From the NCBI GenBank assembly GCA_964439765.1, contig CAYTOG010000002.1, positions 1 through 50,936 of the forward strand: 50,936 nt of DNA. The letters are read 5' to 3'. This stretch comes from an uncultured Methanosarcinales archaeon. GTDB lineage: Archaea > Nanobdellota > Nanobdellia > Woesearchaeales > GW2011-AR9. Shown here in pieces: positions 93 through 27,346 of this stretch; position 1 is the stretch's first letter, and every line of letters starts with the position of its first letter. The notes beneath the pieces are model-generated. The model searched no databases and was not told the origin of the DNA. It saw only the letters and a program-made list of their open reading frames with translations. The position numbers and the translations under genes are program-made.

Positions 93-881
93 TTATATGT
101 TTGGGAAGGTTTCCTTAAATATCTCCACAGCTTGTTCTTCTGTTTTAACTACAGAAATCCCTGCATCAAGATATGCAACTTTACAACCTCTGCTCTCAAA
201 GATATACCTGAGTTTTTCACTCTCATACAAGGGTTTAATCTTTCCTTGAAATTTGGCAGTTTCAAATTCACAATTATCTTTCTTCTCACGTGCACCAAGA
301 CGTTCCATTAATTCTTCAACATTACTTATTGTTGGAATGATAAGAAGATTTGGTGCATTATTAAGTGCAAAATCGTTTCCTTCAATTTTAAGAACAGTTT
401 TCATTGGTAGAGCAGGTTCATGTGGCAAAAGCTCTTGCATTGGTTGATATACAATAGAAGTTGAAACTGATCTAGATTGAATAATATGTTTACCATTTTT
501 TAATGCCGGTAAAATTACACGTTTGTAAAATGTCATTCTGTCAGCTGCAAACATTCTTGCAGTCATGTGTGCAGAATATTGTCTTTTGTTATCTGCTGTG
601 ATTTCTCTTCTAATCATTCTACCTATTCCTGCTCTAGTTGGTTCTGAAGTTACAAGAACATCAAATGAATCAAGATCAACATAGAATGGATTTTTTTCTC
701 CACCTTCCATTTTATGCATAAACTCTGGGTGGATGTGATGTTTATTCCAATAATCATGTAAATCTAAAATACGTAATTTTTTCTTTTTAATGTAATTAAT
801 TATTGCAGCTTGAACTGTACCTTTGCCAATACCATCAAGTCCATCTATTACTGTGAATGTTCCTGAATATTTTTGTTCCAT
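93..881 (-). CDS. tmk: thymidylate (dTMP) kinase-like nucleotide kinase
   Basis: 262-aa ORF. P-loop-like IDGLDGIGKGT, SEPTRAGIG and FAADR segments follow the Tmk pattern (EGxDGxGKST / TREPGGT / ADR). Lies in a thymidylate/folate cluster. Confidence 0.65.
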   Translation of the reverse strand: MEQKYSGTFTVIDGLDGIGKGTVQAAIINYIKKKKLRILDLHDYWNKHHIHPEFMHKMEGGEKNPFYVDLDSFDVLVTSEPTRAGIGRMIRREITADNKRQYSAHMTARMFAADRMTFYKRVILPALKNGKHIIQSRSVSTSIVYQPMQELLPHEPALPMKTVLKIEGNDFALNNAPNLLIIPTISNVEELMERLGAREKKDNCEFETAKFQGKIKPLYESEKLRYIFESRGCKVAYLDAGISVVKTEEQAVEIFKETFPNI

Positions 882-1075
882 TTTTTTTTGTCCTCTTTAT
901 TGTTAAATATTTTATCTAAATTATTCACACTGGTCAGGCCGGGCTACTTTTTTCCTACTCACTTTGATTTTGTGCAACTGTGTGCAACAAAATGTTCGTA
1001 GGAGGTTGATACATTTTTTTCTTCAGTCCGGCAAGTGGACCTACGCGCAAATAATTTTAATTGTGTTGTTTTTAG

Positions 1076-2473
1076 TTACACATCAAGGGGGAATTGTTTA
1101 CAAAGTTCTCTTACTGCCCCTTGAATTGTTTGAATCTTTATGTCTGCTTGCACTGCAGTGTTGAATTCTTTTAATTTCATATCTTTATACTGGCTTGATG
1201 CTAACATTACTTGATTAATCCACTCTGCGATCTGTGTAATCTCTTCTTCTTTCATTCCACGCATTGTAATCCATGGGGTTCCAAGACGTAAACCAGATGG
1301 ACTTAATGGAGAACGTGTCTCTTGCGGAATAGTGTTATAATTTCCAACAATACCTGCGTGATCAAGTGCTTTTGCAAACTTTTTTCCAATTAGTGGCTTG
1401 TTTCTGAGGTCAATTAGTACCAAATGTTTGTCAGTTCCACCACTTACAATTTTAAATCCATATTTTGAAAGTTCTTTGCATAAATGCTGTGCATTCTTTA
1501 CTGTTTGCACAGCGTATTCTTTGAATTCATTAGTTTGTGTTTCTTCTAATCCCACACAAATTCCTGCGATTTGATGATTGAATGGTCCACCCAAAAGACC
1601 TGGAAGCACTGCTTTGTTGATTTTTTTAATTATGTCTTCATGAGCTAGAATTAATGCTCCACGACCACTTTTTAGCGTCTTGTGCGTTGTCATAGTCACA
1701 ACATCAGCAATCCCAACTGGGCTTTTCATTGCACCTGCTGCAATTAAACCTGCTTCATGTGCTATATCAGCTAGATAGTAAGCTCCAACTTTTTGTGCGA
1801 TTTGTTTCATGCGTTTGTAATCTATTTCTCTTGGATACGCAGTACCACCAGTAATAATGAGTTTTGGCTTTTGCAGAGTTGCAATTCTCTCAATTTCATC
1901 ATAATCAAACATTTGTGTTTTTGGATCAGTTTTGTAAGAAATAGTATTGAATATTTTACTGGAAATGTTTACTTTTTGTTTCCCACCATAATACACTGTT
2001 TTATTTGGATCCGCTGGTTGTTTTGGTGTATAACTCCACCCATGTGAGAGGTGACCACCATCTGGAAGATACATCCCCATGATATAATCTCCAATATTTA
2101 GAAGAGCAAGGTAGACAGCTAGATTTGCAGTGGAACCTGAAAGAGTTTGCACATTTACAGACCAATTCTCTGGAAGATTGAACGCTTTTTTTGCTCTCTC
2201 TATTGTCAATTGTTCAATTGCATCAATATATTGGTTTCCTTCATAATACCTTTTATTGATATTCCCTTCGGCATATTTATGTGCTAAAACACTTCCCACG
2301 GCTTCTCTTACGGATTTACTGAAAAAATTTTCAGATGGGATCATTGATAATTTTGTTTGTTGACGCTCTGTTTCATTTTGGATAAGTTTGAATACTTCTG
2401 AATCTTGTATTTCTAATGGAGATTTCTTTATTTGATCATTTAGGTCTTGTTCTTTAGTTTCTGTTTGCATCAT
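1076..2473 (-). CDS. glyA: serine hydroxymethyltransferase
   Basis: SMIPSENF, AHKYAEG..RYYEG and the PLP-lysine motif TTHKTLKSGRG. Start trimmed from the ORF-track 2515 to the ATGATG at 2473/2470, which follows GGAGA and clears the upstream stop at 2487. Confidence 0.9.
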   Translation of the reverse strand: MMQTETKEQDLNDQIKKSPLEIQDSEVFKLIQNETERQQTKLSMIPSENFFSKSVREAVGSVLAHKYAEGNINKRYYEGNQYIDAIEQLTIERAKKAFNLPENWSVNVQTLSGSTANLAVYLALLNIGDYIMGMYLPDGGHLSHGWSYTPKQPADPNKTVYYGGKQKVNISSKIFNTISYKTDPKTQMFDYDEIERIATLQKPKLIITGGTAYPREIDYKRMKQIAQKVGAYYLADIAHEAGLIAAGAMKSPVGIADVVTMTTHKTLKSGRGALILAHEDIIKKINKAVLPGLLGGPFNHQIAGICVGLEETQTNEFKEYAVQTVKNAQHLCKELSKYGFKIVSGGTDKHLVLIDLRNKPLIGKKFAKALDHAGIVGNYNTIPQETRSPLSPSGLRLGTPWITMRGMKEEEITQIAEWINQVMLASSQYKDMKLKEFNTAVQADIKIQTIQGAVRELCKQFPLDV

Positions 2474-2486
2474 ATTTCTCCTAATC

Positions 2487-4253
2487 TTAAAATGTGACTT
2501 TACTTGTGTCCCCACCTAACTTCTCTAGTTTTTCAACAGTTTTTTCTTCTTGTTTTTTTCTCCCTTCATCACCATCCGACATATCTACTCTCATAAATTT
2601 ACTTAATGTTGGAAGATGTTCTTTTGTTAATTTGAACATACGTTGAGCGATATCACGATAAGACCAATGTCCAGCAGAAGTTGATCTAAGTTCTGTTACA
2701 TACGCTAATTGTTTTGGATCCATTTGCCAAATGAATTGTTGCTTATGCACAAACATAACGATATATGGCGCTAGGTGAGGATATTTTTCTTTTATTTTTT
2801 GAAATAATTCTTCTGTTCTTTTTGCACAAAATTCAATAGTTTCTTTTACTTTCATTAATCCTTCTTCCTCTTCAACAAACTCAGGATACTCAAATCCTAA
2901 TTCTGTTGTTAATGGTGCTGTTAGTAGAAGATTACGTCTGTGCCTTTTTAGATCACGATATCCACCATAGTCCATTGTAACTTCAAAAAGAATGTTCCCA
3001 AGTTCTGTTGCAATTGGAAATGCATCAAATTTATTTCTATCCATTAAATATGCTGTAATAATCGGCTCAACAATTAATGGCATTTGTTTACAAATTGAGA
3101 GGTATTCAGCGAAGCTATGAGCTTCTTTGTTATGTTCAAAAAGTATCGCTGCTGCAATTTTTTCTTCAGTATCACAATCTATTGAAATTAATTTAACTGC
3201 ATCTTCATCTCTTGAATTAACTCTTGTTTTCTTTGTAAGATTTATCTTTTCAATAAGAGTACTCATTCTTGCATTTCTTTTTTGTTGAAATTCATTCACA
3301 TTAACATGATTAAGTAACCCTGGAGAAATTTTTCTTCCCTCTTCTAAAAGTGCATAACCAATTACTCTAATCTCTTCTTTTTCATCAGATATTAATCTTG
3401 AGATATGACGTTCAGCTTCTCTTGTTGGCCATACAACTCCAAGCGATGTTAGTATTGTACTTGGAAGAAAGTATCTTACAATATCGAATGTCTTTGCGTT
3501 AACTGTTCTATTAAATGCAGCTTCTGATTTGAATGTGCTTTTGTCTAATTTTTTTGCAATAAATTCAGATACATCTTTTTTTGATTTTTCATACGAATCT
3601 ATTAGTAAGTTATTCCACTTTCTAATTTCTCCTTCAAATTCTTTTAGATCAGTTGGAACAACTAAATGATCACGACTAAATGGAACATATCTTGTTGATT
3701 TTTCTTGATACGCACCAAGTCTTGCTTCTTCAATTGGACATGTTGCTAGTTGTGTTACATTTTCAATTGCGAATCTTAAGACATCTGAATCTTTAAGAGA
3801 ATCATGACCATACTGAACTGCCCACTTACGCATGAATCTCTCTGCTTTTTGAAGGAAATATCTTAGGTTGAGTGAGTCACCATTTCGAATTTTATCTGCG
3901 AAATCTCGAAGGCTAATACTTTCATCACTGTGAATTTTTCCTTTTTGAAGATCTTTTTTCATATCTTCGAAAATTTGAAGAAAACGCATACGCATACTTT
4001 CTTGTGCTCTTGAATATCCACCTTCAAGCAAAGCCCAAAGAGTGTTAGGCATCGCATCTGTTGCAGCATAAATATTCTGGTCTATATTTGTAAAGAAATG
4101 AAGAAGTACTGTTCTTTCGTCTTCTGTGAATTCTCTTTGTTCAAGAGTTGGCCCAAAAGTTTTGGTTGTAATTAGGTTTTTTTCTTCAGGCATGCTTCTT
4201 ATTGAATTTGAAGGTTTTTGAGAAAATTCCTCTTGATTTACATACTCATCCAT
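2487..4253 (-). CDS. long ThyX-like (FAD-dependent thymidylate synthase family) protein
   Basis: 588 aa. Has KRHRR, ELRSTSAGHWSYRDIAQ (like the ThyX LR..AQxEIR segment) and an N-terminal YSRAQESMRMR resembling the SxxxSxRY half of the ThyX signature. Lies between glyA and folC. About twice the size of canonical ThyX. Confidence 0.5.
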   Translation of the reverse strand: MDEYVNQEEFSQKPSNSIRSMPEEKNLITTKTFGPTLEQREFTEDERTVLLHFFTNIDQNIYAATDAMPNTLWALLEGGYSRAQESMRMRFLQIFEDMKKDLQKGKIHSDESISLRDFADKIRNGDSLNLRYFLQKAERFMRKWAVQYGHDSLKDSDVLRFAIENVTQLATCPIEEARLGAYQEKSTRYVPFSRDHLVVPTDLKEFEGEIRKWNNLLIDSYEKSKKDVSEFIAKKLDKSTFKSEAAFNRTVNAKTFDIVRYFLPSTILTSLGVVWPTREAERHISRLISDEKEEIRVIGYALLEEGRKISPGLLNHVNVNEFQQKRNARMSTLIEKINLTKKTRVNSRDEDAVKLISIDCDTEEKIAAAILFEHNKEAHSFAEYLSICKQMPLIVEPIITAYLMDRNKFDAFPIATELGNILFEVTMDYGGYRDLKRHRRNLLLTAPLTTELGFEYPEFVEEEEGLMKVKETIEFCAKRTEELFQKIKEKYPHLAPYIVMFVHKQQFIWQMDPKQLAYVTELRSTSAGHWSYRDIAQRMFKLTKEHLPTLSKFMRVDMSDGDEGRKKQEEKTVEKLEKLGGDTSKVTF

Positions 4254-23851: not shown

Positions 23852-24001
23852 TTGTAAATCACCTCATCACCTCTTTAGAAGGAGGCAACTTCACTTTATA
23901 TGTCTTGTGGAGACTATGTATTAAAATTTGTGACTAGAAATATGATGTTTTGAGTAAAGTAAGCTTTATAAGATACTATTTTTTAAGTTAGTTGAGTTGT
24001 A

Positions 24002-25267
24002 ATGGTAGATCTTGGTGGTGTAGTTAGAAAATTATTCAGGACTTCTTTTGAAGGTTCAATGCATGTTATTACTGGACCAGTTGGTTCTAAGAAAAATGAA
24101 GCACTTTCTGCTCATCTTGACCCCCTTATTGACAGTGGTCGGATGGCAAAATGGGGTGGCGTTATTGTTTCTCATCCAATGGAAGGAGAACAAGTTACAG
24201 ATCGGCACAAGGCAGACTTAGTTACCTCTTCAGCTCAAGAAGTTTATAGCCTTGTTCTTGAAAGAAATCCAGGAATTGTTGTTATTGCTGGAGCATCACA
24301 ATTTGCTCATTCTGATAGAGATGATGATTTGAGTTCTCTTTGTCGTGAATTGTTTCGTTCTAATCGAAAATTAATATTATCTGGACCGAATTTAGATATT
24401 AATGCAGAACCATATGGTATTATGCCACAATTACTTTCAAGAGCAAGTTCAGTTGAACTAGTCAAGGGAGTATGTCATGTTGGAAAGTATAAACATGCCA
24501 ATAGGAGTATGTACTTTGGTGAAGAATTACGTTCAGTTTGTGCATATCATTTAGAGAATCCTGGTCATGAAGAACCAATAAACCATGGGATGTTACATTT
24601 GTATTTAGGACCAATGTTTTCAGGAAAATCTAGTTCTTGGAGAGCACAACTTTTTAGACTTCGTGAAGAAGGGATTGATCCACTTGTTATTAAGTGGACT
24701 GAAGAGAGATATGCTGCTAAAGTACATGAAGTTGCTTTACACAATGGATTAACTGAAAGGGCACAACCATTCAATAATGTTGATCAAGTTCGTGATTATT
24801 TGAAAAAACACTCAAGAAAAAAAGTTTTATTTTGGGATGAATTACAATTTTTTCCTGGTTGTTATGAATTAATCAAAGAATTGATTCCAAAAGGTTATCG
24901 AATTTATGGAACTGGTTTACCAAGAGATTTTCGTAGAATTGGTTTTAATGATATTCCTAATTTGATGTGTCTAGCTGATGAAATTGAAATTAATGAAGCT
25001 TATTGTGATGAGTGCTCTGATCCTGCCACAGAAAGCCAAAGGGTTGCACGCCGCAGAGGTATTTTTAGAGAAATTGTTACACCCGCAGGATTCCATGGAG
25101 ATTTAGTACTTGCTGGAGGAAGCGAAGATTATCGTCCTACTTGTATCTCCCACCATGATCTTCCAGGTAAGCCGCCTACCCGTTTTCCTATGCCAACATT
25201 TTACTGGGGAAGAAGGAGGATTTTGAATTCAAGAAGTCTTCCAAATCTTTTAAGTCTAGTGAATTAA
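24002..25267 (+). CDS. tandem thymidine kinase: degenerate N-terminal TK-like domain fused to an intact TK domain
   Basis: The C-terminal half (from about 24590) has GPMFSGKSS, WDELQFF, GLPRDFR, CDEC....ATESQR and C..HH. The N-terminal half has the same order of elements but degraded (GPVGSKKN, AGASQF, GPNLDINAEPYG, one Cys/His pair). Confidence 0.7.
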   Translation: MVDLGGVVRKLFRTSFEGSMHVITGPVGSKKNEALSAHLDPLIDSGRMAKWGGVIVSHPMEGEQVTDRHKADLVTSSAQEVYSLVLERNPGIVVIAGASQFAHSDRDDDLSSLCRELFRSNRKLILSGPNLDINAEPYGIMPQLLSRASSVELVKGVCHVGKYKHANRSMYFGEELRSVCAYHLENPGHEEPINHGMLHLYLGPMFSGKSSSWRAQLFRLREEGIDPLVIKWTEERYAAKVHEVALHNGLTERAQPFNNVDQVRDYLKKHSRKKVLFWDELQFFPGCYELIKELIPKGYRIYGTGLPRDFRRIGFNDIPNLMCLADEIEINEAYCDECSDPATESQRVARRRGIFREIVTPAGFHGDLVLAGGSEDYRPTCISHHDLPGKPPTRFPMPTFYWGRRRILNSRSLPNLLSLVN

Positions 25268-25662: not shown

Positions 25663-26223
25663 TTATTTTGCCTCTGGGACAATTGCGCTCTCATTACTTG
25701 CTGCAATTTTTTCTCCAGTTGTTGCATCAAGTTTGATATTCAAGAAAGTCAATTTCTTTGTAATAAAAGAGATATTCCACACTACTTTCCCGTCTATATT
25801 CTGCAGAATAGCAAAACCATTTCCCCTTAAGTTTTTTACCTCAGAAAATTCTTCTGCAATTAGTTTTTCTGCATGAGGAATTATTAATGGAAAATCTAAA
25901 GTTTTCTCATCAACAACTAAAGGATATATCTTTGTTGTTTTTGTTGCAAATACATCGTCAGTTGTTTTAATTTCAAACTTTCCAGCATCATTTAGAGTAA
26001 ACACAGTCACTTTGTTTGATTCAGAATCATAATATCCAATATCCCAAGCACTTGTTGCAGCATACTTCTCATTAATTTGTAAAAAGAAATGTGAGGGGGT
26101 ACTTTTTTTGTGGTCTTTATGCCACTGTTTAAATGCTTCACAGCTCTCTAAACTTGCAATAAGCTTTTGTGCAGCAGATTTATTTGTTAATTGTTCATCT
26201 TTCTCATTAGATTTTTCTGTCAT
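25663..26223 (-). CDS. hypothetical protein (186 aa)
   Basis: The ORF-track start at 26346 overlaps the TFS gene, so it was trimmed to the ATG at 26223, one nt after the TFS stop. No motifs recognised. Confidence 0.4.
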   Translation of the reverse strand: MTEKSNEKDEQLTNKSAAQKLIASLESCEAFKQWHKDHKKSTPSHFFLQINEKYAATSAWDIGYYDSESNKVTVFTLNDAGKFEIKTTDDVFATKTTKIYPLVVDEKTLDFPLIIPHAEKLIAEEFSEVKNLRGNGFAILQNIDGKVVWNISFITKKLTFLNIKLDATTGEKIAASNESAIVPEAK

Positions 26224-26224
26224 C

Positions 26225-26548
26225 TTATGAATACTCTCGCCATGTATGACTACATTTTGTGCATTTGAAAAAACGTGTCTCTGGTTCATCCGCTGATCTT
26301 GTTTGTTGCGTCCAAAAATATGCAGCATTGTTCTCACATTTACCACAAATGGTTCGAATCTTTGGAAGAAGTGCCATTTCGTTTACAATTTCTACTTTCT
26401 TTGCAGCTTTTACTTCTTCTTTAATTACTAGTGATCCCTCTGGCTCTTTGGTATAGCCACAACTACAATAAAGAATTTTTTTATTGCCTTTGGCTTTTGG
26501 ACGTAAAATACTACTACATTCTGGACAAAACATTGACATTTTTCTCAC
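26225..26548 (-). CDS. tfs: transcription factor S / RNA polymerase subunit M-type zinc-ribbon protein
   Basis: N-terminal CPEC...CSCG ribbon and the C-terminal TFIIS-type ribbon CGKC....QTRSADEPETRFFKCTKCSHTW. Confidence 0.9.
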   Translation of the reverse strand: MRKMSMFCPECSSILRPKAKGNKKILYCSCGYTKEPEGSLVIKEEVKAAKKVEIVNEMALLPKIRTICGKCENNAAYFWTQQTRSADEPETRFFKCTKCSHTWREYS

Positions 26549-26722: not shown

Positions 26723-27346
26723 ATGGGTTTACAATCATTAAAACAAGAAATACGTGCATTACCAAGCATTGGTTCTGATTTACAGGGTTTTAAGAAACAT
26801 TGGCTTAGTCCTTTACGTAAAGGACAAAAGTGCAATAAAGCGCAACAGGGGCTTCATGAGATGCATCCTGATGACAAATCTAAAATTCATTCCACCCTTA
26901 AAGGATTTTATTCTCAGTTTTCAGAGTTAGAAGGACATACAATACTTCCTGAAAAATTACATGCACTTAGTTCTGCACTTGTTGAAATGAAACTATTAAG
27001 TTTACGTGGCGCAGAAAATGGTGGGAAAATGTCATTTCTCCAAGGAAAAGTTTTAGATGACCCACAGTTTAGTCTTTCAAATACAATAACTGAGATTAAA
27101 TCATTTGATGAAAAGCTTAGTCAAATTGAAACACTTTATCACGACGTTAATGGATATCTTCATCAAACACTTTCATTAGAACATTCTGTTGCTCTTCTTG
27201 AACTACCACATTATGCTTATTTGAAAAATTTGAAAGAAACTGCAAAACATCAAAAACGAATCGTTAAAAAACTTGGGCGTGAATTTGTTTCTCTTCAACG
27301 AAAATTAGAACGTCAGAAAAAAAAGCAACAACGTGCTTCTAATTAA
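26723..27346 (+). CDS. hypothetical protein, basic C-terminus
   Basis: 207-aa ORF in an otherwise empty interval. Helical/charged composition with no family motif. Confidence 0.35.
   Translation: MGLQSLKQEIRALPSIGSDLQGFKKHWLSPLRKGQKCNKAQQGLHEMHPDDKSKIHSTLKGFYSQFSELEGHTILPEKLHALSSALVEMKLLSLRGAENGGKMSFLQGKVLDDPQFSLSNTITEIKSFDEKLSQIETLYHDVNGYLHQTLSLEHSVALLELPHYAYLKNLKETAKHQKRIVKKLGREFVSLQRKLERQKKKQQRASN

Follow-up and report, generated by a model that had tools for sequence, protein, structure and literature searches.

The question raised by this locus is what a thymidine kinase (TK) gene is doing with two TK domains in one reading frame. Ordinary TKs are chains of about 190-220 aa which work as four identical subunits (PMC4433323), whereas in the window (viz. 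the whole stretch of 50,936 nucleotides of archaeal DNA that was analysed) a single chain carries two domains, of which one looks competent. The original prediction described the protein as a fusion in which a degenerate copy of TK at the N-terminus precedes an intact TK at the C-terminus, and on this point Pfam, profile and fold comparisons all agree. The gene and its main parts are as follows.

23965..23971, plus strand: TTTATAA, a TATA-box-like element read from the sequence, about 34 nt upstream of the ATG
24002..25267, plus strand: the whole tandem thymidine kinase gene, a single ORF of 421 aa plus stop
24050..24565, plus strand: the N-terminal pseudo-TK domain, residues ~17-188, with a TK1 alpha/beta fold and a short Zn ribbon (Pfam, profile, fold)
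24566..24586, plus strand: the inter-domain linker, residues 189-195, placed by the AF2 model after the final helix of the N-domain (181-185) and before the first strand of the C-domain (197-202)
24587..25177, plus strand: the C-terminal TK1 domain, residues 196-392, predicted to be the catalytic one (Pfam, PDB, fold)
25178..25264, plus strand: the C-terminal tail, residues 393-421 (alignment and AF2)

The ORF at 24002..25267 is initiated by ATG and its 421 codons include zero internal stops, and two matches to PF00265 are found within one 423-codon open frame. All of the motifs that had been quoted for the two halves are present in the order given, viz. GPVGSKKN (residues 25-32), AGASQF (96-101) and GPNLDIN (128-134) in the N-half, and GPMFSGKS (203-210), WDELQFF (278-284), GLPRDFR (305-311), CDEC (335-338) and C381..H384-H385 in the C-half. 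Met1 is favoured as the start, because a conserved 'F-x-(Q/E)-G' stretch of the relatives aligns upstream of Met20. The TTTATAA element is a putative promoter, as follows from what is established for archaeal promoters, and the leader of the transcript would then be short or absent. The gene is flanked by a divergently transcribed transaldolase/pgi operon and by a gene for a TFS-type transcription factor (PF01096), and it is the sole TK of a 1.15-Mb genome that is 94.6% complete. A foreign origin of the gene was considered and rejected, as its GC content (0.30-0.39 along the gene) is close to that of its neighbours (0.29-0.37). The linker is modelled with a pLDDT of about 92-96. The last ~17 residues of the tail have no counterpart in the aligned relatives, whose ends fall near '...F-x-W', and are predicted to be disordered, the pLDDT being below 50 at residues 405-413 and 419-421 of the AF2 model.

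The C-terminal half has every catalytic and structural TK residue that was checked and is, on that basis, predicted to be a thymidine kinase. Its match to the Pfam TK family PF00265 runs over the whole profile (positions 1-176 of 176), with an E value of 1.2e-25 and a score of 90.8 bits where the cut-off is 20.6, and its matches to solved TKs in the PDB reach E values down to 2.3e-23. The fold of this half (AF2 residues 195-392) is closest to 2b8t (Z 25.4, rmsd 1.5 Å, 183 residues aligned), and the Z-scores against 24 TK entries are 19.5-25.4, whereas those of unrelated P-loop proteins are at most 11.3. Its Walker A motif, GPMFSGKS, is canonical (GxxxxGK[ST]), and the following codon specifies the residue that should act as its catalytic base.

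24839..24841, plus strand: the codon for Glu280, the predicted catalytic base (equivalent to hTK1 E98 and LmTK E85), Glu being found in 47/47 family C-domains and 111/117 single TKs

The role of the equivalent Glu as catalytic base is known from other TKs (PMC9190010, PMC4433323), and this Glu as well as the roles of the Zn-site residues and of the lasso clamped by an Arg and a Tyr are described in PMC4433323. The Arg that stabilizes the transition state (equivalent to hTK1 R60) is R236, the Zn ligands C335, C338, C381 and H384 are all present, and so are the lasso clamp residues R347 and Y377. In the C-domains of 47 relatives K209, E280, C335, C338 and C381 are invariant, and the conservation of R236, R347 and Y377 is 90% or above. 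Three features nevertheless make an altered substrate preference of the C-domain possible: its score of 134.9 bits does not reach the equivalog cut-off of NCBIfam (183 bits), the residue aligned with D58 is Glu234 where the usual residue is Asp, and its lasso carries an 8-residue insertion.

The relationship of the N-terminal half to TK is not apparent from a direct comparison of the two halves. In BLASTP they match at E 0.009 over the P-loop strand only, and due to this weak match the internal repeat is detectable only via profiles and fold. The N-half alone matches the Pfam TK family with 23.8 bits (E 4.6e-5; cut-off 20.6) and the PDB entry 1xx6 with E 2.4e-5 over residues 13-160, and a profile built from five N-halves matches all 18 distinct TK1 sequences in the PDB, the best at 1.6e-21. 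When the N-half was folded alone (pLDDT 80.3) and compared, without a Foldseek pre-filter, with 48,161 PDB representatives, the top three were the TKs of T. maritima, human and vaccinia (Z 18.3, 16.4 and 15.6) and the next entry had Z 10.8. The superposition on the T. maritima enzyme (2orw) has an rmsd of 2.6 Å over 158 residues, and the alignment extends through the Zn-ribbon region. The possibility that this half is unrelated to TK is thus refuted at the levels of Pfam, profile and fold. Further, both halves share with the canonical TK1s (human 1XBT/1W4R, T. maritima 2ORW, U. urealyticum 2B8T and C. acetobutylicum 1XX6) an alpha/beta domain followed by a Zn-ribbon/lasso domain, and in the AF2 model the order of secondary-structure elements is identical in the two halves. 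However, the N-half is without the beta-hairpin after strand 2, and its lasso is shortened to ~27 residues (154-180), as compared to ~50 (331-380) in the C-half.

The residues required for catalysis are not retained in this fold. The position of the catalytic Glu is occupied by Gly97 in the HMM alignment, or by Ala98, one residue on, in the full-length alignment, the residue equivalent to R60 is Pro59, and the lasso Tyr is also lost from the N-half of the window protein. The Zn site is partial, as had been stated: C158, C180 and H183 are kept, whereas the second Cys, which is present in 39/47 relatives, is replaced by Gly161. The P-loop is altered as well.

24074..24097, plus strand: the degenerate Walker A motif GPVGSKKN, residues 25-32, in which Lys31 is kept, the second Gly is changed to Lys, and Ser/Thr is changed to Asn

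Judged by these residues, the N-half is a homologue of TK but not a functional member of the group, and it is predicted to be catalytically dead.

To compare the state of the corresponding residues in the family, alignment columns were mapped via the TK HMM in the 47 N-domains, in the same number of C-domains, and in 117 single TKs.

Catalytic Glu: N-domains 0/47 (Gly in 44, Ala in 3), C-domains 47/47, single TKs 111/117
Preceding Asp: N-domains 3/47, C-domains 35/47, single TKs 108/117
Transition-state Arg: N-domains 8/47, C-domains 44/47, single TKs 108/117
Walker A Lys: N-domains 46/47, C-domains 47/47, single TKs 116/117
First Zn Cys: N-domains 46/47, C-domains 47/47, single TKs 117/117
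Second Zn Cys: N-domains 39/47, C-domains 47/47, single TKs 113/117

The catalytic Glu is absent from every N-domain and present in every C-domain of the family, and the covalent pairing of a pseudo-enzyme with an enzyme, which had been proposed from the window protein, is upheld. Most of the N-domains also lack the Arg of the lasso clamp, and the lasso Arg/Tyr are mostly gone. The Walker A glycine is retained in the family N-domains, and their P-loop reads G-P-V-x-S-x-K-[TS] in the full-length alignment, where 43/44 aligned rows have the Lys and 17/44 have a G-K-[ST] that is fully canonical. The C..H pair that closes the ribbon of the N-domains (C180, H183) is at least 90% conserved. Overall, the mean pairwise identity of the N-domains is 35.8%, compared to 34.7% for the C-domains (1081 pairs, r = 0.62). 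The N-half has 12 positions that are at least 90% conserved, including K31, H58, G97, R122, N130, L131, C158, C180 and H183, and its residues S120, D132 and P137 are invariant in smaller alignments and strongly conserved in the 47 sequences. As the N-half is conserved like the C-half and has near-invariant positions of its own, it is interpreted as a selected pseudo-enzyme domain and not as the product of decay.

Based on these observations, we consider it likely that the protein is a pseudo-dimeric kinase of the TK1 family (type II), in which the duplicated N-terminal domain lost catalysis but has been maintained by selection, serving as a partner subunit built into the chain. The N-domain would have been derived by internal duplication of the same TK in a Woesearchaeota-type ancestor, and catalysis would have been lost from it along with the Glu base, the preceding Asp and the transition-state Arg and with the shortening of the thymidine-binding lasso. 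The closest guide to what such a domain may do is the tandem TK of T. brucei. In the summaries given in PMC9190010 and PMC10208901, for which the source is Ranjbarian et al. 2012 (J Biol Chem, PMID 22442154; structures of the catalytic domain 5FUV-5FUY), this enzyme is presented as a monomeric pseudodimer with an active C domain and an inactive N domain, the latter of which improves the binding of substrate. By analogy, the dead N-domain of the archaeal protein most likely packs on the catalytic domain in the manner of the second protomer of a TK1 tetramer, and such packing may stabilize the catalytic domain and raise its affinity for the substrate without any need for concentration-dependent oligomerization. 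Thymidine would be phosphorylated by the C-half only, with the N-half supplying a partner surface. The AlphaFold model of the monomer, which had been recommended along with the original prediction, is consistent with this. The full chain is modelled from the 47-sequence alignment with a pLDDT of 90.1 and a pTM of 0.89, and within it the pLDDT of the N-half is mostly above 94. The pTM indicates a confidently fixed arrangement of the domains in the model, compatible with an intramolecular pseudodimer, and the window protein is read as such due to three lines of evidence, viz. the same polarity of dead and live domains as in T. brucei, the short and confidently modelled linker, and the high pTM of the whole chain.

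A different emphasis, which overlaps with the partner-subunit reading, is that the N-domain is mainly a regulatory sensor, whose P-loop binds ATP or dTTP, the end product, and allosterically tunes the kinase in the C-half. Such a role is suggested by the Walker A Lys, kept in nearly all N-domains, by the canonical G-K-[ST] of a part of them, and by a degree of conservation which equals that of the catalytic domain. It is also in keeping with the architecture of TK1 enzymes, which have two subunit interfaces, one formed by a 12-stranded beta-sheet and one of the alpha1-alpha1 type, with the phosphate-donor (ATP) site located at the alpha1-alpha1 interface and the tetramer being opened by ATP (PMC4433323). 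However, the truncation of the thymine-binding lasso, together with the loss in most cases of the lasso Arg/Tyr, makes canonical binding of dTTP unlikely, the P-loop of the window protein (GPVGSKKN) is without the Mg-binding Ser/Thr, and TK1 enzymes are, according to a review, generally without true allostery (PMC10208901). Further, the N-domain of the window protein is the most divergent of the family, with a terminal branch of 1.69 compared to a median of 0.62 and an identity to its relatives of 30% compared to 36%. In view of this divergence, and since the second Zn Cys, the lasso Tyr and the Ser/Thr of the P-loop have been lost, the N-half of this protein is less likely to bind a nucleotide than are the N-halves of the relatives. 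A mainly sensory role is for these reasons regarded as unlikely. Under the partner-subunit reading, which we prefer, the retained Walker A Lys suggests that the dead domain may hold phosphate or a nucleotide, at least in the relatives.

The same divergence could also be taken to mean that the N-half is a functionless relic of the duplication on its way to being lost, as all of its catalytic residues are gone and, in the window protein, it sits on the longest branch of the N clade. However, in a family whose members are only ~35% identical, a relic should not be conserved like the enzyme half with 12 of its positions at 90% or above. Neither stops nor frameshifts were seen in the N-half of any family member found, and within the full chain this half is modelled with high confidence. 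Hence, this explanation is disfavoured, and we consider it very improbable.

The fusion is not confined to the window. A search of an index of 5.8 billion proteins yielded nine relatives of 290-454 aa, and a profile of the N-domain searched against 1.84 billion cluster representatives matched 34 proteins at E <= 1e-30; in this latter search about 45-50 clusters, with proteins of 370-450 aa, share the layout of a dead N-domain and a live C-domain, and the same two-domain architecture, for which a search had been recommended, is thus found in dozens of relatives outside the window. With a 4-sequence alignment of the closer relatives, tandem loci were also retrieved from named genomes. The gene is present in groundwater MAGs labelled 'Candidatus Woesearchaeota archaeon', and one family member in GenBank is MFW6046255.1, 'hypothetical protein [Candidatus Woesearchaeota archaeon]'. 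The other carriers are unclassified or auto-labelled archaeal MAGs, one of which has a CDP-archaeol synthase nearby. The annotation of the family is inconsistent, one member being called 'thymidine kinase' in JGI and another 'hypothetical protein' in GenBank. That the 421-aa ORF is an artefact, in which two neighbouring genes were joined by an error of assembly or sequencing, is a possibility in favour of which nothing was found and which can be dismissed almost with certainty, since the fusion is shared by those about 45-50 independent clusters and by named MAGs, a separate assembly of what is probably the source run (a seawater metagenome) reproduced the region with 0 differences, a 266-base contig from a second metagenome sample covers positions 24531-24796, inclusive of the domain junction, without differences, and the linker is short and confidently modelled.

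Within the taxonomic family of the window, the tandem form is present in 6/37 genomes, one of them from a congener which shares the transaldolase synteny of the window; an ordinary TK of 205-220 aa is present in about a dozen of the 37, and in the remainder no TK was found. In even samples of genomes, the tandem form was found in 14/401 from the order and 15/401 from the phylum, and the carriers in these samples belong to at least seven families, nearly all of them inside the order. Every tandem-bearing genome has a single TK, which is the tandem one, and the tandem form therefore replaces the single form and is not an addition to it.

The branching of the two halves indicates how this arrangement arose. 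In a FastTree phylogeny of 272 domains, the N-domains all fall into one clade (support 1.0) and the C-domains all into a second (0.99). In an IQ-TREE mixture-model tree of 71 rows the SH-aLRT values for the N and C clades are 94 and 100, respectively, and the internal branching of the two clades is parallel. The presence of two single clades with matching internal branching indicates that the tandem gene had one origin, after which the two domains diverged together. When the N and C clades were constrained to group together, the likelihood was higher by 30.95 lnL than that from a quick free search, and the grouping was not rejected (p-AU 0.878). This favours a single internal duplication of TK within the Woesearchaeota-type archaeal lineage, although long-branch attraction could help to produce the sister relationship of the N and C clades. 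[quoted passage not shown] Other tandem TKs are seen in metagenomic data. P0045, P0065 and P0070 each have two intact domains, P0046 (637 aa) has three domains, each with a P-loop, and in its middle domain Gly takes the place of the catalytic Glu (VDGGQF), and P0064 and P0106 are further tandem or triple TKs of about 670 aa. Like the window gene, P0045, P0046, P0065 and P0070 are TK1s internally duplicated in one ORF. However, in contrast to the window family, their copies are sisters and most of them keep the P-loop and DE-x-QF, and they are separate, younger duplications.

The view that an architecture of this kind had not been described does not hold, as tandem TK1s with one inactive half have been published from T. 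brucei, T. congolense (with four domains), Giardia, Trichomonas vaginalis and Ascaris suum (PMC9190010, PMC10208901), the same papers describing the distribution of tandem TKs as 'indicating an overrepresentation in parasites'. The T. brucei enzyme, so far as it is described in these accounts, resembles the window protein in having two TK1 domains in a chain of ~400-450 aa, with an active C domain and an N domain that is dead because key residues have been lost, and the C-domain of the window protein superimposes on the catalytic domain of TbTK with Z 21.1 and an rmsd of 1.9 Å. However, T. brucei is a eukaryotic parasite and the window is from a DPANN archaeon, and the archaeal family most likely underwent its own duplication, in which case the likeness is convergent. 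The TK of Giardia intestinalis and G. muris is likewise a TK1 chain made of an active half and a dead half; it is a 42-kDa monomer, viewed as a pseudodimer and with a high affinity for thymidine, in which the dead half is weakly homologous to the active one (Krakovka et al. 2022, PMC9190010). In this case the polarity is opposite to that of the window protein, the N half being active and the C half dead (PMC9190010). Further, the identity between the two Giardia halves is only 13% and it is uncertain whether they share an origin, whereas the dead half of the window protein is recognized clearly as a TK from profiles and fold, and Giardia is without de novo synthesis of dTMP, whereas the window archaeon has ThyX. 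In the literature, no report of a tandem dead/live TK from an archaeon or another prokaryote was found, inclusive of DPANN and Woesearchaeota. Hence, proteins of this kind are already known from eukaryotic parasites, and the archaeal occurrence appears to be unreported and independently evolved.

The setting of the gene is informative in regard to its metabolic role. The window also encodes Tmk, SHMT and a 588-aa double-domain ThyX, and the genome has two genes for the large subunit of ribonucleotide reductase (RNR), whereas ThyA was not found in it. In view of the presence of ThyX, SHMT, Tmk and ribonucleotide reductase, the kinase is interpreted as a salvage route beside de novo synthesis of dTMP. 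No link was found between the tandem form and the loss of de novo dTMP synthesis, as ThyX is present in 5/6 of the tandem-bearing genomes of the family, and the genomes with a single TK or without TK are mixed; as the genomes are kin, this comparison is descriptive only. In the relatives, the tandem gene is adjoined by a Rad50/SbcC-like ATPase in 5/11 loci, and such a gene also neighbours the single-domain TKs of the family. A corrinoid adenosyltransferase and an ATP-cone RNR are found beside the tandem gene in 3-4/11 loci of the relatives. Both types of neighbourhood are related to deoxynucleotides and DNA maintenance. It was also observed that an internally duplicated ThyX occurs in genomes with the tandem TK.

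A broader and more tentative suggestion, which we regard as possible but doubtful, is that pseudo-dimeric TKs have arisen convergently in host-dependent, ultra-small DPANN archaea and in parasitic eukaryotes, that their dead half is a conserved nucleotide-binding regulatory subunit, and that the duplicated ThyX hints at a general hard-wiring of homo-oligomeric dTMP enzymes in tiny cells. If this is true, the overrepresentation of tandem TKs in parasites would extend to a second domain of life, and single-chain dTMP enzymes would free the assembly of these enzymes from its dependence on protein concentration. The family provides a prokaryotic and independent example of a pseudo-enzyme/enzyme tandem, of which the cases studied until now are all from eukaryotic parasites, and from its about 50 diverged natural sequences one can learn what in the dead half is indispensable. 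In terms of annotation, it would be wrong to score the dead domain as an additional TK. These results also bear on the question of why homo-oligomeric enzymes turn into covalent pseudo-oligomers, and on the supply of thymidine nucleotides in symbiotic DPANN archaea, where salvage is found next to ThyX and, in the relatives, next to ribonucleotide reductase.

In several members of the family of 47 aligned tandem thymidine kinases (TKs), which pair a dead N-domain with an intact C-domain, the second glycine of the C-domain Walker A motif is replaced by serine, aspartate or alanine (giving sequences such as GAVCSSKST and GPMFADKST). Examples of this kind are L006, a locus from the genus of the window organism, the related archaeal locus L005, and the proteins P0002 and P0006; in this column 21 of the 47 C-domains carry glycine, 19 serine and 4 aspartate. 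For a P-loop kinase that works, such a relaxation is unusual. At the end of the kinase from the window, no relative has an equivalent of the final ~17 residues (GRRRILNSRSLPNLLSLVN), which are predicted to be disordered and possibly represent read-through once the ancestral stop was lost.

Two proteins are possible stand-alone forms resembling the N-domain, viz. G006:C13:21901-22152, from a related genome, where the match within a 233-aa frame is restricted to profile positions 59-143, and the metagenomic P0020 (174 aa), which falls within the N-domain clade. These may be either fragments or truly split forms. Further multi-domain TKs are also present in metagenomic protein collections, and they include triple TKs and tandems retaining the P-loop and DE-x-QF in both copies (P0046, 637 aa; P0064 and P0106, 669-677 aa; P0045, P0065 and P0070, 418-441 aa). 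Because the copies within each of these proteins are mutual sisters, their sequences indicate duplications separate from that of the archaeal tandem family.

The features of the window relevant here are as follows:

25178-25264 (+), C-terminal tail of the kinase
25663-26346 (-), 227-aa ORF flanking the TFS-type transcription factor gene, which lies downstream of the kinase
26723-27346 (+), 207-aa ORF flanking the same gene
222-4253 (-), thymidylate gene cluster (Tmk, SHMT, ThyX)
222-659 (-), Tmk match
1076-2515 (-), serine hydroxymethyltransferase (SHMT)
2487-4253 (-), ThyX, 588 aa, two Thy1 domain matches

Neither of the two TFS-flanking ORFs has a Pfam match. In related loci, a Rad50/SbcC-like ATPase gene, whose orientation varies, directly adjoins the tandem TK gene (L005, L015, L016, L018, L020) and also the single-domain TK gene (L012, L013). 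In four loci (L004, L015, L016 and L017) a corrinoid adenosyltransferase (CobA/BtuR-type; PduO-like in L004) and then an ATP-cone ribonucleotide reductase come after the tandem TK, an arrangement that looks like a small dNTP-supply cluster and implies that the reductase is B12-dependent. ThyX frames with two domains, 460-615 aa long, occur commonly in related genomes and, given also the two Thy1 matches in the ThyX of the window, the de novo dTMP enzyme is therefore internally duplicated too in the lineage of this organism.
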